Shown here piece after piece: positions 46,646-53,929 of a stretch of 64,000 bases of DNA. The notes beneath the pieces were generated by a model. It was given only the letters and a program-made list of their open reading frames with translations. It ran no database searches and was not told the DNA's origin. Position numbers and translations under genes: made by a program. This DNA is from Escherichia coli (GTDB taxonomy: Bacteria > Pseudomonadota > Gammaproteobacteria > Enterobacterales > Enterobacteriaceae): NCBI RefSeq assembly GCF_003991155.1, contig NZ_CP031293.1. One strand, 5' to 3'. Positions within the stretch are counted from its first letter, which is position 1; each line of letters opens with the position of its first letter.

Positions 46646-46775
46646 AACCATCCTCAAAATGTACTTTTTGTCTGAATGTAGACTATCACGGGAAAACTCT
46701 CTGAACAGTTGACGCACATCAATCTAACTTTCATTCGAAAGTATTTTAATGTTTGAACGAAACAGAGAGGCAACT

Positions 46776-47675
46776 ATGATTTTCAATATTCAGCGCTACT
46801 CGACCCATGATGGCCCCGGTATCCGCACGGTCGTATTTCTTAAAGGCTGTTCGCTGGGCTGCCGCTGGTGTCAGAACCCGGAAAGCCGCGCCCGCACGCA
46901 GGATCTGCTGTATGACCCACGTCTGTGCCTGGAAGGCTGTGAGCTGTGCGCTAAGGCCGCGCCGGACGTGATTGAGCGCGCGTTGAATGGTTTGCTTATT
47001 CATCGGGAAAAGTTAACCCCGGAGCATCTGACGGCGCTAACCGACTGCTGCCCGACACAGGCGTTAACCGTGTGTGGTGAAGTGAAAAGCGTTGAGGAGA
47101 TCATGGCGACCGTTCTGCGCGATAAACCGTTTTACGATCGCAGCGGCGGCGGCTTAACGCTTTCTGGCGGTGAACCGTTTATGCAGCCGGAAATGGCGAT
47201 GGCGCTACTGCAAGCCAGCCACGAGGCTGGCATTCATACTGCGGTAGAAACCTGTCTGCATGTGCCGTGGAAATATATCGCCCCTTCTCTGCCCTATATC
47301 GATCTGTTTCTTGCCGATTTAAAACACGTTGCCGACGCGCCGTTTAAACAGTGGACCGACGGTAACGCCGCCAGAGTGCTGGATAACCTGAAAAAACTCG
47401 CCTCAGCGGGCAAAAAAATCATTATCCGCGTACCGCTGATTCAGGGCTTTAATGCCGACGAAACCTCTGTAAAAGCCATTACCGATTTTGCCGCCGACGA
47501 GCTGCACGTTGGCGAAATTCATTTTCTGCCCTACCACACGCTGGGCATCAACAAATATCACTTACTTAATCTGCCCTATGACGCCCCGGAAAAACCGCTT
47601 GATGCGCCAGAACTGCTCGACTTTGCCCAGCAGTACGCCTGCCAGAAAGGGTTAACCGCGACCTTACGAGGATAA
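46776..47675 (+). CDS. ybiY: Glycyl-radical enzyme activating protein YbiY (PflE)
   Basis: Radical-SAM cluster motif [12 protein letters not shown]; about 299 aa from [10 protein letters not shown] (track start 46749 is an alternative). Confidence 0.8.
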
Positions 47676-47680
47676 CAACC

Positions 47681-50113
47681 ATGACCACACTGAAACTGGA
47701 CACGCTCAGCGACCGCATTAAAGCGCACAAAAATGCGCTGGTGCATATTGTGAAACCACCAGTCTGTACCGAGCGCGCGCAGCACTATACCGAGATGTAT
47801 CAACAACATCTCGATAAGCCGATCCCGGTACGTCGCGCGCTGGCACTGGCGCATCACCTGGCGAATCGCACCATCTGGATCAAGCACGATGAGTTGATCA
47901 TCGGCAACCAGGCAAGCGAGGTTCGCGCCGCGCCGATCTTCCCGGAATATACCGTCTCGTGGATCGAAAAAGAGATTGATGATCTGGCAGATCGTCCGGG
48001 TGCTGGTTTTGCGGTGAGCGAGGAGAACAAACGTGTTCTGCATGAAGTGTGCCCGTGGTGGCGCGGTCAGACGGTACAGGATCGCTGCTACGGCATGTTT
48101 ACCGATGAGCAAAAAGGTCTGCTGGCGACCGGCATCATTAAAGCGGAGGGCAATATGACCTCCGGCGATGCGCACCTGGCGGTGAATTTCCCGCTACTGC
48201 TGGAAAAAGGGCTTGATGGTCTGCGTGAGAAAGTGGCGGAACGTCGCTCGCGCATCAATCTGACGGTACTGGAAGATCTGCACGGCGAGCAATTCCTGAA
48301 AGCGATTGATATCGTGCTGGTGGCAGTCAGTGAACACATTGAACGTTTCGCTGCCCTGGCGCGTGAAATGGCCACGACCGAAACCCGCGAAAGCCGTCGC
48401 GATGAACTGCTGGCGATGGCAGAAAACTGCGATCTTATCGCCCACCAACCGCCGCAGACTTTCTGGCAGGCGCTGCAACTGTGTTACTTCATCCAGTTGA
48501 TATTGCAGATCGAATCTAACGGTCACTCAGTATCTTTTGGTCGTATGGACCAGTATCTCTATCCATACTATCGCCGTGACGTTGAACTGAACCAGACACT
48601 GGATCGCGAACACGCCATCGAGATGCTGCATAGCTGCTGGTTGAAATTGCTGGAAGTGAACAAAATCCGCTCCGGCTCACACTCAAAAGCCTCTGCGGGA
48701 AGTCCGCTGTATCAGAACGTCACCATTGGCGGGCAAAATCTGGTTGATGGTCAACCGATGGACGCGGTAAATCCACTCTCTTATGCGATCCTCGAATCTT
48801 GCGGTCGCCTGCGTTCGACTCAGCCTAACCTCAGCGTGCGTTACCATGCGGGTATGAGTAACGATTTCCTCGACGCCTGTGTTCAGGTGATCCGCTGCGG
48901 CTTCGGGATGCCGGCGTTCAACAACGACGAAATCGTCATCCCGGAATTTATTAAACTCGGTATTGAACCGCAGGACGCTTACGACTATGCAGCGATTGGT
49001 TGTATCGAAACCGCCGTCGGTGGCAAATGGGGCTATCGCTGTACCGGCATGAGCTTTATCAACTTCGCCCGCGTGATGCTGGCGGCGCTGGAAGGCGGTC
49101 GTGATGCCACCAGCGGCAAAGTGTTCCTGCCACAAGAAAAAGCGTTGTCAGCGGGTAACTTCAACAACTTCGATGAAGTAATGGACGCATGGGATACGCA
49201 AATCCGTTACTACACGCGTAAATCAATCGAAATCGAATATGTCGTCGACACCATGCTGGAAGAGAACGTACACGATATTCTCTGCTCGGCGCTGGTGGAT
49301 GACTGTATTGAGCGAGCGAAAAGTATCAAGCAAGGCGGCGCGAAATATGACTGGGTTTCTGGCCTGCAGGTCGGCATTGCTAACCTCGGCAACAGCCTGG
49401 CGGCAGTGAAGAAACTGGTATTTGAACAGGGCGCGATTGGTCAGCAACAGCTGGCTGCCGCACTGGCGGATGACTTCGACGGCCTGACTCACGAGCAGCT
49501 GCGTCAGCGGCTGATTAACGGTGCGCCTAAGTACGGCAACGACGATGATACTGTCGATACGCTGCTGGCTCGCGCTTATCAGACCTATATCGACGAACTA
49601 AAACAGTACCATAACCCGCGCTATGGTCGTGGTCCGGTTGGCGGCAATTATTACGCGGGTACGTCATCTATCTCCGCTAACGTACCCTTTGGCGCGCAGA
49701 CGATGGCAACGCCGGACGGACGTAAAGCGCATACCCCGCTGGCAGAAGGCGCTAGTCCGGCCTCCGGTACTGACCATCTCGGCCCAACGGCGGTCATTGG
49801 CTCAGTGGGTAAACTGCCTACGGCCGCGATTCTCGGCGGCGTGCTGCTCAACCAGAAACTGAATCCAGCAACGCTGGAGAACGAATCTGACAAGCAGAAA
49901 CTGATGATCCTGCTGCGCACCTTCTTTGAAGTGCATAAAGGCTGGCATATTCAGTACAACATCGTTTCCCGCGAGACGCTGCTGGAGGCGAAAAAACATC
50001 CCGATCAGTATCGCGATCTGGTAGTGCGCGTCGCGGGCTATTCCGCCTTCTTCACCGCGCTCTCTCCAGACGCTCAGGACGATATCATCGCCCGTACTGA
50101 ACATATGCTGTAA
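47681..50113 (+). CDS. ybiW: Glycyl radical enzyme YbiW (PflF, pyruvate formate-lyase-like)
   Basis: 810 aa; C-terminal glycyl radical motif RVAGYSAFF; catalytic GCIE Cys pair region. Confidence 0.9.
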   Translation: MTTLKLDTLSDRIKAHKNALVHIVKPPVCTERAQHYTEMYQQHLDKPIPVRRALALAHHLANRTIWIKHDELIIGNQASEVRAAPIFPEYTVSWIEKEIDDLADRPGAGFAVSEENKRVLHEVCPWWRGQTVQDRCYGMFTDEQKGLLATGIIKAEGNMTSGDAHLAVNFPLLLEKGLDGLREKVAERRSRINLTVLEDLHGEQFLKAIDIVLVAVSEHIERFAALAREMATTETRESRRDELLAMAENCDLIAHQPPQTFWQALQLCYFIQLILQIESNGHSVSFGRMDQYLYPYYRRDVELNQTLDREHAIEMLHSCWLKLLEVNKIRSGSHSKASAGSPLYQNVTIGGQNLVDGQPMDAVNPLSYAILESCGRLRSTQPNLSVRYHAGMSNDFLDACVQVIRCGFGMPAFNNDEIVIPEFIKLGIEPQDAYDYAAIGCIETAVGGKWGYRCTGMSFINFARVMLAALEGGRDATSGKVFLPQEKALSAGNFNNFDEVMDAWDTQIRYYTRKSIEIEYVVDTMLEENVHDILCSALVDDCIERAKSIKQGGAKYDWVSGLQVGIANLGNSLAAVKKLVFEQGAIGQQQLAAALADDFDGLTHEQLRQRLINGAPKYGNDDDTVDTLLARAYQTYIDELKQYHNPRYGRGPVGGNYYAGTSSISANVPFGAQTMATPDGRKAHTPLAEGASPASGTDHLGPTAVIGSVGKLPTAAILGGVLLNQKLNPATLENESDKQKLMILLRTFFEVHKGWHIQYNIVSRETLLEAKKHPDQYRDLVVRVAGYSAFFTALSPDAQDDIIARTEHML

Positions 50114-50258
50114 TCTTCTCAGCCCGGCGGCGGCGTCGCCGGGCTAAATCATTCACATCATCAATTTCAGCCTCGCTTTCATTCGAAATATAATTTGTGC
50201 TCTGCGTCACATTGTTATTACACTGTTACGGTTTCATTTTCGAGCCAGGAGCACACCT

Positions 50259-51074
50259 ATGAGCGTAAAAGTTATCGTCACAGACATGGACGGTACTTTT
50301 CTTAACGACGCCAAAACGTACAACCAACCACGTTTTATGGCGCAATATCAGGAACTGAAAAAGCGCGGCATTGAGTTCGTTGTCGCTAGCGGTAATCAGT
50401 ATTACCAGCTTATTTCGTTCTTTCCTGAGCTAAAGGATGAGATCTCTTTTGTCGCGGAAAACGGCGCACTGGTTTACGAACATGGCAAGCAGTTGTTCCA
50501 CGGCGAACTGACCCGACATGAATCGCGGATTGTGATTGGCGAGTTGCTAAAAGATAAGCAACTCAATTTTGTCGCCTGCGGTCTGCAAAGTGCATATGTC
50601 AGCGAAAACGCCCCCGAAGCATTCGTCGCACTGATGGCAAAACACTACCATCGCCTGAAACCTGTAAAAGATTATCAGGAGATTGACGACGTACTGTTCA
50701 AGTTTTCGCTCAACCTGCCGGATGAACAAATCCCGTTAGTGATCGACAAACTGCACATAGCGCTCGATGGCATTATGAAACCCGTCACCAGTGGTTTTGG
50801 CTTTATCGACCTGATTATTCCCGGTCTACATAAAGCAAACGGTATTTCGCGGTTACTGAAACGCTGGGATCTGTCACCGCAAAATGTGGTAGCGATTGGC
50901 GACAGCGGTAACGATGCGGAGATGCTGAAAATGGCGCGTTATTCCTTTGCGATGGGCAATGCTGCGGAAAACATTAAACAAATCGCCCGTTACGCTACCG
51001 ATGATAATAATCATGAAGGCGCGCTGAATGTGATTCAGGCGGTGCTGGATAATATCGCTCCTTTCAATAGTTGA
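50259..51074 (+). CDS. ybiV: HAD-family sugar phosphatase YbiV (Cof-like)
   Basis: 271 aa; HAD motif VTDMDGTFL; paralogue of ybjI. Confidence 0.9.
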
Positions 51075-51225
51075 TCTTCCCCCTGGCCGAAGTGACCACT
51101 TCGGCCTCTCTCCTTTTTGCTCGCTTTGTGCACTGACTCAAGATTTTTATCTTGCGTTAACTTATTTTTAACTTAATGTATCAATCGTAATCATTTTACT
51201 TTCGAATGAAAGAAGCGAGGTTGAT

Positions 51226-52485
51226 ATGACTTTTTCCTGTGAGACGCTGCCCACAGATGCGAAAGCGGCTATCCGAGAGATGAAAGCTGCGCTGCGAGGA
51301 CAGCTCGGTGATGTGCAACAGGTTTTCGATACACTCTCTGCAAAAATCGAAACGCGTGTTGCTGAAATCGATGCCCTAAAAGCGCAAGGGCTGCCGGTTT
51401 GGCCGGAAGTTTCTTATAGTGATATTGCCGCAGGTACAGTAAGCGATGCCACTCGCAATGAAATTAAACGTCGCGGCTGTGCAGTCATAAAAGGCCATTT
51501 CCCTCGCGAGCAGGCGATGGCGTGGGATCGTGCCATGCTCGATTATCTTGATATCAATCATTTTGATGATGTTTATAAAGGCCCTGGCGACAGTTTTTTC
51601 GGCTCGCTGGAGGCTTCTCGTCCCGAAATCTATCCCATTTACTGGTCGCAAGCACAGATGCAGGCGCGGCAGAGCGAAAACATGGCTGCTGTGCAATCTT
51701 TTCTAAACCGACTGTGGACGTCTGAAAGCAACGGCAAACAGTGGTTTAATCCTGATATCAGTGTGATTTATCCAGACAGGATCCGCCGCCGCCCTCCAGG
51801 TACTACATCTAAAGGCCTGGGCGCGCATACCGATTCTGGTGCGCTGGAACGGTGGTTATTACCCGCTTATCAGCGCGTTTTTGCCAATGTGTTTAATGGT
51901 AATTTCGATGATTACGATCCCTGGGATGCAGCACACCGGACCGATGTCGAAGAGTACACGGTAGATAACACTACAAAATGTTCGGTGTTCCGCACGTTTC
52001 AAGGCTGGACGGCGCTCTCTGATATGTTATCGGGTCAGGGATTGTTACATGTGGTGCCTATCCCGGAAGCGATGGCGTATGTTTTATTGCGCCCGCTGCT
52101 GGATGACGTACCGGACGATGAACTGTGCGGGGTTGCACCTGGCAAAGTTCTGCCCATTTCAGAGAAATGGCATCCACTACTGCTTAAAGCGCTGACTTCC
52201 ATTCCCGCGATAACAGCAGGGGATTCCGTCTGGTGGCACTGCGATGTGATTCACTCCGTCGCGCCAGTAGACAATCAACAGGGTTGGGGCAACGTGATGT
52301 ATATCCCTGCTGCGCCAATGTGCGAGAAAAATCGGGCTTATGCACACAAAGTCAAAATGGCGCTGGAAAAAGGCGCATCACCTGGCGACTTCCCGCGGGA
52401 AGATTATGAAGCAAACTGGGAAGGCCGCTTTACGCTGGAGGATCTGAACATTCACGGTAAGCGCGCACTGGGCATGGATGTTTGA
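51226..52485 (+). CDS. ybiU: DUF1479-family protein YbiU
   Basis: 419 aa at the K-12 position; identity from synteny and partial recognition. Confidence 0.8.
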   Translation: MTFSCETLPTDAKAAIREMKAALRGQLGDVQQVFDTLSAKIETRVAEIDALKAQGLPVWPEVSYSDIAAGTVSDATRNEIKRRGCAVIKGHFPREQAMAWDRAMLDYLDINHFDDVYKGPGDSFFGSLEASRPEIYPIYWSQAQMQARQSENMAAVQSFLNRLWTSESNGKQWFNPDISVIYPDRIRRRPPGTTSKGLGAHTDSGALERWLLPAYQRVFANVFNGNFDDYDPWDAAHRTDVEEYTVDNTTKCSVFRTFQGWTALSDMLSGQGLLHVVPIPEAMAYVLLRPLLDDVPDDELCGVAPGKVLPISEKWHPLLLKALTSIPAITAGDSVWWHCDVIHSVAPVDNQQGWGNVMYIPAAPMCEKNRAYAHKVKMALEKGASPGDFPREDYEANWEGRFTLEDLNIHGKRALGMDV

Positions 52486-52567
52486 GAGTTAATGGAAGTG
52501 AATTGATGTGGGATTAAGAAAATCGATTCGACGTTACTCAGATTGCTGACAAATGCGCTTTGTTAAT

Positions 52568-52603
52568 GCCTGATGCGGCGTTAACGCCTTATCCGGCCTA
52601 CAA
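52568..52603. repeat. REP element
   Basis: gcctgatgcggcgttaacgccttatccggcctaca matches REP consensus; adjacent to the IS element. Confidence 0.7.
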
Positions 52604-52636
52604 AGTCCTGCAGATTCAATATATTGCAGGTACTGC

Positions 52637-52695
<59 letters not shown>

Positions 52696-52724
52696 GCCAG
52701 ACACAGCGCCGTCAGGCGCTGTTG

Positions 52725-53929
<1,205 letters not shown>

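Follow-up and report, generated by a model that had tools for sequence, protein, structure and literature searches.

The three copies of a 14-bp inverted repeat, CTTTC-N4-GAAAG, found upstream of ybiY-ybiW, ybiV and ybiU in a 64,000-nucleotide stretch of Escherichia coli DNA (hereafter the window) are very probably operators for YciT (b1284), a DeoR-family repressor encoded elsewhere in the genome. The boxes match the consensus under other YciT peaks and are deeply conserved. Both the regulator and its targets were published earlier and the motif represents no new kind of biology, whereas the exact YciT operator sequence and its positions are now fixed. The additions made here are a conserved FNR box, a third operator at ybiV, and a displacement of 111-164 bp between the boxes and the two published ybi peaks.

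First, the copies in the window were located. The copy CTTTCATTCGAAAG (46728-46741) lies in the divergent promoter between fsaA (45983-46645, minus strand) and ybiY, which encodes a glycyl-radical enzyme activase (46776-47675, plus strand) and is followed by the glycyl-radical enzyme gene ybiW (47681-50113, plus strand). The second copy, CTTTCATTCGAAAT (50176-50189), lies upstream of the HAD sugar phosphatase gene ybiV (50259-51074, plus strand), and the third, CTTTCGAATGAAAG (51199-51212; GTTTCGAATGAAAG in K-12), is separated by 13 nt from the ATG (51226) of ybiU, which encodes a DUF1479 protein (51226-52485, plus strand). All three had been recorded in the initial annotation, where the fsaA/ybiY copy was placed at 46727-46740, one base too far to the left. 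The corresponding boxes of K-12 (NC_000913.3) stand at 863546-863559 (ybiY), 860098-860111 (ybiV) and 859078-859091 (ybiU). The 12-mer core TTTCATTCGAAA was exact in every copy, and the 5+5 palindrome of CTTTCATTCGAAAT was broken by its final base. In the window, CTTTC-N4-GAAAG was found twice against 0.07 matches expected by chance, and the core, when one mismatch was allowed, was found three times, each time exactly, against 0.59 expected.

The ybiV and ybiU copies also share a longer block, CCTCGCTT(C)TTTCATTCGAAA, in opposite orientation, as had been noted before. This block would speak for repeats that arose by chance or were left behind by a local duplication and have no function. The block is indeed present in the window; it was missing in K-12 and in other genera, however, and is thus lineage-specific and lies outside the conserved element, of which it was ruled out as a component. 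Given the low chance expectation and a box that stays nearly invariant while its flanks have diverged, a functionless origin has a negligible probability and is already refuted by the conservation data.

Conservation was examined in 80 orthologous loci, which amount to 1.44 Mb and represent about 20 genera of enterobacteria. When the core was searched for with at most one mismatch, 214 matches were observed, exclusively at the three promoter positions, and the 12-14 bp box was nearly invariant over these genera, whereas the flanks diverged. All 67 orthologous loci compared carried the ybiY box in constant orientation, 35-38 nt upstream of the ATG, and the 14-mer was identical in 65 of them. 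The ybiU box was present in every one of 79 loci, always in one orientation, 14-29 nt upstream of the ATG. The ybiV box was found in 67 loci, 66-71 nt upstream of the ybiV ATG, with ATTC as the central four bases in 39 loci and GAAT in 28; ATAT was observed in 8 further loci. Such an exchange of the centre at one position is what a dyad site read from double-stranded DNA should show. The phylogenetic footprinting proposed in the initial annotation accordingly showed that the corresponding spacers in 80 species have kept the boxes. Nor did the motif occur at background frequency: in a sample of 298.5 kb of K-12, TTTCRWWYGAAA gave just six matches, which were the three ybi boxes and the centres of three YciT ChIP-exo peaks, with no others.

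The same data bear on the suggestion of an RNA hairpin common to the transcripts, which might act, for instance, on translation or on the stability of the mRNA. In its favour, the ybiU copy probably falls within or beside the 5' untranslated region, close to the Shine-Dalgarno sequence, and the fold of the ybiY copy is better than that of shuffled sequences (-4.9 kcal/mol, z = -3.2). However, the folds are weak, and those of the ybiV (-0.4 kcal/mol) and ybiU (-3.3 kcal/mol) copies were no better than shuffles. Furthermore, the inferred start site is downstream of the ybiY copy, which falls between an FNR box and the -10 hexamer; loop and stem show the same degree of conservation across the orthologous loci, without compensatory variation; at its one position, the ybiV copy is found in either orientation, depending on the species; the extended block is unconserved; and a search of Rfam gave no family match. 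A shared hairpin is therefore extremely improbable, and we return to the operator.

The regulator was sought in published work. In 2021, YciT was reported to bind the ybi locus by ChIP-exo, with peaks in the ybiU-ybiV and ybiY-fsaA regions (Gao et al., NAR, PMC8464067). In the same study, RNA-seq of a yciT deletion showed log2 changes of +7.7 for ybiY, +7.0 for ybiU, +3.5 for ybiW, +2.2 for ybiV and +1.8 for fsaA. The genes with exact boxes are those most strongly de-repressed in the deletion. In addition, YciT was strongly enriched from lysate with a ybiY promoter bait by DNA-affinity chromatography and mass spectrometry, and its site on this promoter overlaps the RNA polymerase footprint and is some 100 bp away from the peak of 2021 (bioRxiv 10.1101/2025.05.13.653802). 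This puts YciT on the ybiY core promoter, which is also the location of the box. Hence the earlier statement that the motif had no described regulator does not hold, as YciT represses exactly these genes; the proposal made at the same time, that a single DNA-binding factor controls ybiYW, ybiV and ybiU together, stands, with the difference that the factor had already been identified.

To compare the box with YciT binding elsewhere, the published peaks were converted from NC_000913.2 to NC_000913.3 coordinates, and 12 non-ybi peaks, out of 49 peaks in all, were checked. Ten of them, at yfcV, sixA, rdcA, yjiT, pdeR, ybiO, ompX, potF, dmsA and ycaP, were centred on variants of CTTTC-N4/5-GAAAG, which indicates that the motif is the YciT operator. 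The offset between box and peak centre was 0-1 bp where compared, except at yjiT, whose 52-bp peak was offset by 11 bp. The best matches to the consensus of the YciT peaks were the three ybi boxes themselves. The motif was called palindromic in the 2021 paper (PMC8464067), and from the sequences under the peaks we infer that it would be the same as the CTTTC-N4-GAAAG box. The earlier view that the motif is distinct from FNR, CRP and Fur sites was correct. Expression of yfcV, rdcA and yjiT, all with box-bearing peaks, is unchanged in the yciT deletion, showing that a box by itself is no guarantee of regulation.

At the ybi locus, the published ChIP-exo peaks miss the boxes, by 164 bp at ybiU and by 111 bp at ybiY, whereas the peaks elsewhere lie exactly on boxes; this observation counts against the operator reading. 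The ybiV box has no published YciT peak. These displacements would fit boxes that bind another, still unidentified protein, with the YciT effect being indirect or exerted via other nearby sites. This explanation has to be set against the ten other YciT peaks centred on the same box, the recovery of YciT with a short ybiY bait, at a site away from the 2021 peak and where the box lies, and the strong de-repression of the genes with exact boxes, and we regard it as highly unlikely. No gel-shift or footprint of the 14-mer with purified YciT was found in the literature searched, where the 12-mer TTTCATTCGAAA appeared exclusively in oligonucleotides of a Salmonella pflE promoter study.

We also examined the surroundings of the ybiY box. 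An FNR-type box, TTGACgcacATCAA (46709-46722), agrees with TTGAT-N4-ATCAA at 9 of 10 positions, and the orthologues keep TTGAY-N4-RTCAA, suggesting binding by FNR. A conserved -10 hexamer, TTTAAT (46745-46750, plus strand), would place the ybiY +1 at 46757, so that the centre of the FNR box lies 41.5 bp upstream of the start site and the YciT box at about -29 to -16. The order of the elements is thus the conserved FNR box, the YciT box and the -10 hexamer. A scan with the sigma-70 consensus over 46600-51300 gave no informative result, which is not surprising for promoters that depend on an activator. In both E. coli and Salmonella, anaerobiosis or hypoxia induces the ybiY promoter (bioRxiv 10.1101/2025.05.13.653802, PMC3326293), and FNR is likely to be the "unidentified activator" of a 2025-26 reporter study. 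A search of the literature for ybiY together with FNR, or for fnr dependence, gave no match.

The ybiY (pflE) promoter has its Salmonella orthologue in PpflE, a tumour-specific, hypoxia-inducible promoter (Leschner et al. 2011/2012, PMC3326293). Its 100-bp fragment, which carries the FNR box, an identical CTTTCATTCGAAAG and TTTAAT, was induced 150-fold by hypoxia, a 50-bp fragment beginning at the box was silent, and replacement of TTTAAT with TGTCAT abolished expression (PMC3326293). The activity was credited there to a 21-bp 'tusp' motif starting from TTTAAT, and the FNR box and the inverted repeat went unrecognised; most simply, the 'tusp' motif is the -10 region. The PpflE of tumour-targeting work can thus be described in ordinary terms as a -10 hexamer preceded by an FNR box and a YciT operator.

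The system was then compared with known ones. YciT carries an N-terminal PF08220 HTH_DeoR domain (E = 1.4e-15) and a C-terminal PF00455 DeoRC domain (E = 7.7e-47), and scored 488 bits against NCBIfam NF040887 (cut-off 450). It shares these domains with the sugar-phosphate repressors AgaR, GlpR, SrlR, UlaR and DeoR, with AgaR being the best-scoring paralogue family. AgaR operators likewise contain TTTC repeats. As in DeoR-family systems, several YciT operators are spread over catabolic promoters across a few kilobases; unlike those systems, YciT has a compact box, a 14-bp dyad with 5-bp arms, and yciT is unlinked to its own regulon, as no yciT homologue was found within 10 kb of ybiU in the 80 loci. 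Autoregulation was also looked for: no box with at most two mismatches was found near the yciT/yciZ promoter, the nearest being upstream of pdeR, 2.5 kb away. Compared with the K-12 YciT regulon (PMC8464067; bioRxiv 10.1101/2025.05.13.653802), the locus, the regulator and the targets (ybiU, ybiV, ybiW, ybiY and fsaA) are the same, and the sequences under the published peaks yield the same CTTTC-N4-GAAAG box; the published regulon has no reported site in the ybiW-ybiV spacer, where we found an operator.

Occupancy of the locus by YciT, its pull-down with the ybiY bait and the de-repression in the yciT deletion are taken from published work (PMC8464067; bioRxiv 10.1101/2025.05.13.653802), whereas we infer the exact promoter geometry and the role of FNR at ybiY. 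The boxes have the consensus 5'-CTTTC-RWWY-GAAAG-3', a 14-bp dyad, and a YciT dimer or higher oligomer bound to each double-stranded dyad would block RNA polymerase. At ybiY, the box would fill the spacer between a class-II FNR site and TTTAAT; with the box in this position, ybiYW should need both anaerobiosis, through FNR, and the release of YciT. At ybiU, the box is expected to lie at or adjoining the transcription start. At ybiV, the operator is directly followed by a CRP-like palindrome, TGTGCtctgcgTCACA (50196-50211), conserved in all genera, and repression is weaker there. YciT keeps a small set of sugar-breakdown genes off, and the regulon, comprising ybiY, ybiW, ybiV and ybiU together with fsaA, would encode an anaerobic 1,5-anhydroglucitol-6-phosphate pathway. 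YbiW is described as a glycyl-radical enzyme cleaving 1,5-anhydroglucitol-6-phosphate (PMC12441222, citing Ma et al. JACS 2024), and the YciT regulon is hereby linked to that 2024 assignment. The effectors of DeoR-family repressors are phosphorylated sugars. Because this is usual in the family, the inducer of YciT would most likely, by analogy, be one of the pathway's own phosphorylated sugars, for instance 1,5-anhydroglucitol-6-phosphate.

Taken together, these findings lead us to propose tentatively, as a serious possibility that we hold just short of probable, that the recently discovered glycyl-radical 1,5-anhydroglucitol pathway is governed by a two-input gate, made up of the three operators and the FNR box, in which FNR would report anaerobiosis and YciT a sugar phosphate of the pathway (such as 1,5-anhydroglucitol-6-phosphate or 1-deoxyfructose-6-phosphate). 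The 2021 paper (PMC8464067) ties YciT to osmolarity and the preprint (bioRxiv 10.1101/2025.05.13.653802) suggests a relief of repression under anaerobiosis; FNR and the 1,5-anhydroglucitol pathway are mentioned in neither. If true, the gate would replace both proposals, osmolarity control and oxygen-relieved repression alike. The displaced ChIP-exo peaks could then mean a looped multi-operator YciT complex over 4.5 kb, and YbiU, an uncharacterised DUF1479 protein, would share one physiological response with the phosphatase YbiV.

A motif search of the window recovered the three copies of the 14-bp inverted repeat CTTTC-N4-GAAAG described in the initial annotation: CTTTCATTCGAAAG at 46728-46741 upstream of ybiY, CTTTCATTCGAAAT at 50176-50189 upstream of ybiV, and CTTTCGAATGAAAG at 51199-51212 upstream of ybiU. 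The positions reported for the ybiV and ybiU copies were correct, but the ybiY copy starts one base to the right of that reported. The 12-mer core TTTCATTCGAAA was exact in all three boxes. The full pattern was found twice in the window against 0.07 expected by chance, and the core, with one mismatch allowed, three times against 0.59 expected, each time exactly. The window is in the reverse orientation of MG1655, with fsaA on the minus strand followed by ybiY, ybiW, ybiV, and ybiU on the plus strand, and all three copies recur in K-12 at NC_000913.3 859078, 860098, and 863546, where the ybiU copy is GTTTCGAATGAAAG. The longer block common to the ybiV and ybiU copies is specific to this strain's lineage. 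The fsaA-ybiU segment (45789-52640) showed 92.6% identity to K-12 against 98% in the adjoining ybiT, and the spacer upstream of ybiU is very unlike that of K-12, which suggests that the cluster is a recombined or divergent allele within E. coli. A 1.3-kb insertion relative to K-12 lies between ybiU and ybiT (52640-53918) and contains an IS110-family (RNA-guided) transposase gene (52745-53725, minus strand; NF033542, 252 bits) adjoined by a REP-like sequence.

A search with YbiU yielded 80 orthologous loci (1.44 Mb in all) from Escherichia, Citrobacter, Klebsiella, Raoultella, Enterobacter, Kluyvera, Kosakonia, Lelliottia, Trabulsiella, Yokenella, Pluralibacter, Phytobacter, and other genera, and the order fsaA(-) ybiY ybiW ybiV ybiU was kept in nearly all of them. 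With one mismatch allowed, the core matched 214 times, always at one of the three promoter positions, and the box was nearly invariant while its flanks diverged; this conservation rules out a chance match or a relic of duplication. The box was located 35-38 nt before the ybiY ATG in one orientation (67 of 67), 14-29 nt before the ybiU ATG in the orientation opposite to the ybiY copy (79 of 79), and 66-71 nt before the ybiV ATG, where 39 copies had one orientation and 28 the other. At the centre of the ybiV box (window 50177-50188), 39 loci read ATTC, 28 read GAAT, and 8 read ATAT. The distance to the ATG is constant, and the variants coexist within a genus (Citrobacter, Enterobacter); the 8 ATAT loci carry the perfect palindrome TTTC-ATAT-GAAA at the identical position. 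Since these variants share one position, the aligned loci identify the element as the dyad TTTC-RWWY-GAAA, in most cases with a C before it and a G after it. Flipping is confined to the ybiV operator and never occurs at ybiY or ybiU, suggesting that only a box overlapping core promoter elements is restricted to one orientation. A shared RNA hairpin, which the initial annotation had offered as an alternative, was rejected as an explanation of the repeat: the folds of the box copies were weak, the boxes showed no covariation, the repeats had no Rfam match, the ybiV copy flips, and transcription of ybiY is inferred to start downstream of its copy.

Co-regulation of these genes, as initially proposed, proved to be real; however, the regulator is not an undescribed factor but YciT (b1284), and the finding has been in the literature since 2021 (PMC8464067). 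In that study, Gao et al. listed YciT ChIP-exo peaks beside ybiV and ybiY and called the YciT MEME motif palindromic. RNA-seq of the yciT deletion gave log2 changes of +7.7 for ybiY, +7.0 for ybiU, +3.5 for ybiW, +2.2 for ybiV, and +1.8 for fsaA, and a supplementary figure presents YciT as a repressor of these genes. Furthermore, a preprint (10.1101/2025.05.13.653802) reported that the ybiYW promoter is anaerobically active in reporter assays, recovered YciT there by DNA chromatography with mass spectrometry, and mapped its site to the RNA polymerase footprint. YciT combines an HTH_DeoR with a DeoRC domain and fits the NCBIfam YciT model, and AgaR is its nearest paralogue family. No yciT homologue was found within 10 kb of ybiU in the 80 loci.

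The 2021 peak coordinates (NC_000913.2) were converted to NC_000913.3 by adding 777 in the ybi region and, past the IS5 and gatC differences, 1976-1978, and the K-12 sequence was inspected under 14 YciT peaks. Ten of the 12 non-ybi peaks were centred on a box, namely those at yfcV (CTTTCCGAATGAAAG), sixA (CTTTCATCTGAAAC), rdcA (TTTTCATTTGAAAG), yjiT (TTTTCATTTGAAAT), pdeR (TTTTCAAACGAAAG), ybiO (CTTTCGGGTGAAAG), ompX (GTTTCGGGTCGAAAA), potF (CTTTCAGAAGGAAAG), dmsA (CTTTCGAGTGAAAA), and ycaP (CATTCATATGAAAG). Where compared, the centres were offset by 0-1 bp, except at the 52-bp yjiT peak (11 bp). Indeed, TTTCRWWYGAAA matched six times in 298.5 kb of K-12, at each of the ybi boxes and at the centres of three peaks. 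This distribution and the boxes at peak centres mark CTTTC-N4-GAAAG as the YciT consensus, of which the ybi boxes are the best genomic matches. Binding of the boxes by a different protein is unlikely, because the non-ybi YciT peaks are mostly centred on such boxes and affinity purification recovered YciT. Good boxes with strong ChIP-exo signal at NC_000913.3 2456192, 4326860, 4572205, and 1346880 adjoin yfcV/sixA, rdcA/yjdM, yjiT, and pdeR, but these genes are absent from those changed in the yciT deletion; hence, YciT binding at these sites appears to have no regulatory effect in the condition tested.

The ybi peaks themselves are displaced. Peak 8 (NC_000913.3 859232-859265; window ~51023-51056) falls within the 3' end of ybiV and misses the ybiU box by 164 bp, peak 9 (863650-863677; window ~46611-46638) covers fsaA codons 3-12 and misses the ybiY box by 111 bp, and no peak on the ybiV box is listed in the 2021 table. 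Small unrelated palindromes, CTGAAT-CAC-ATTCAG and GTATC-TG-GATAC, occur under the displaced peaks. Five other peaks in the ybi range validated the conversion, so the displacement originates in the published table or data and not in the mapping; the preprint authors likewise remarked on a gap of ~100 bp between their site and the 2021 peak (10.1101/2025.05.13.653802). The displacement may stem from faulty peak pairing at very strong sites, from an error in the table, or from a looped complex involving several operators.

The conserved ybiY layout is TTGAY-N4-RTCAA, 5 nt, CTTTCATTCGAAAG, 3 nt, and TTTAAT. In the window, a near-consensus FNR-type box (TTGACgcacATCAA, 46709-46722), kept in all orthologous ybiY promoters, precedes the YciT operator by 5 bp, and the candidate -10 hexamer TTTAAT is at 46745-46750. 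If TTTAAT is the -10, the +1 would be at ~46757, which would centre the FNR-type box at -41.5 and place the YciT box at -29 to -16. Salmonella provides independent evidence for this geometry: a 100-bp promoter fragment of pflE (ybiY) with the same layout gave 150-fold hypoxia induction, changing TTTAAT to TGTCAT abolished expression, and a 50-bp fragment was silent (PMC3326293); the silent fragment begins at the first base of the YciT box and thus excludes the FNR box. ybiY would be a class-II FNR promoter with the repressor YciT occupying the spacer. The preprint placed an "unidentified activator" ~15 bp ahead of the YciT site, with no mention of FNR (10.1101/2025.05.13.653802); most simply, this activator is probably FNR. 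No paper linking ybiY with FNR was found in the literature searched. A possible divergent fsaA -10, TAGTCT (~46680-46685, minus strand), is ~42 bp from the FNR-type box, which might accordingly serve both promoters.

The ybiU box immediately precedes the Shine-Dalgarno sequence and follows a conserved AT-rich block with three AACTT repeats at ~11-bp spacing (~51150-51175; consensus TTaAACTTGCATTAACtTatTTTTAACTTAaA). These repeats could be an UP-like element or the site of another factor. ybiU was de-repressed ~130-fold in the yciT deletion in aerobic glucose medium (PMC8464067), so its promoter does not need FNR. Repression of ybiV was weaker (~4.6-fold; PMC8464067). Conservation upstream of ybiV begins at the box and runs into a CRP-like TGTG-N8-CACA palindrome (TGTGCtctgcgTCACA, 50196-50211), directly downstream of the operator and conserved in all genera. 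Its centre would be near -27.5 if counted from the best conserved -10 candidate (consensus TAGAAT; here TACACT, 50219-50224), an atypical place for an activator site.

Hydroxyacetone is among the donors used by FsaA, which could therefore cleave 1-deoxyfructose-6-phosphate. This compound is formed from 1,5-anhydroglucitol-6-phosphate under strict anaerobiosis by the glycyl-radical enzyme YbiW, according to a 2025 review (PMC12441222) that summarizes Ma et al. (JACS 2024). Thus, the YciT regulon is the 1,5-anhydroglucitol catabolic set together with YbiV and YbiU. Effectors of the DeoR family are typically sugar phosphates, so a phosphate of the pathway would be the likely YciT inducer. With the regulator already known, the present analysis contributes the flagged ChIP-exo discrepancy, the exact operator map, the FNR assignment, and the link to the 1,5-anhydroglucitol pathway.
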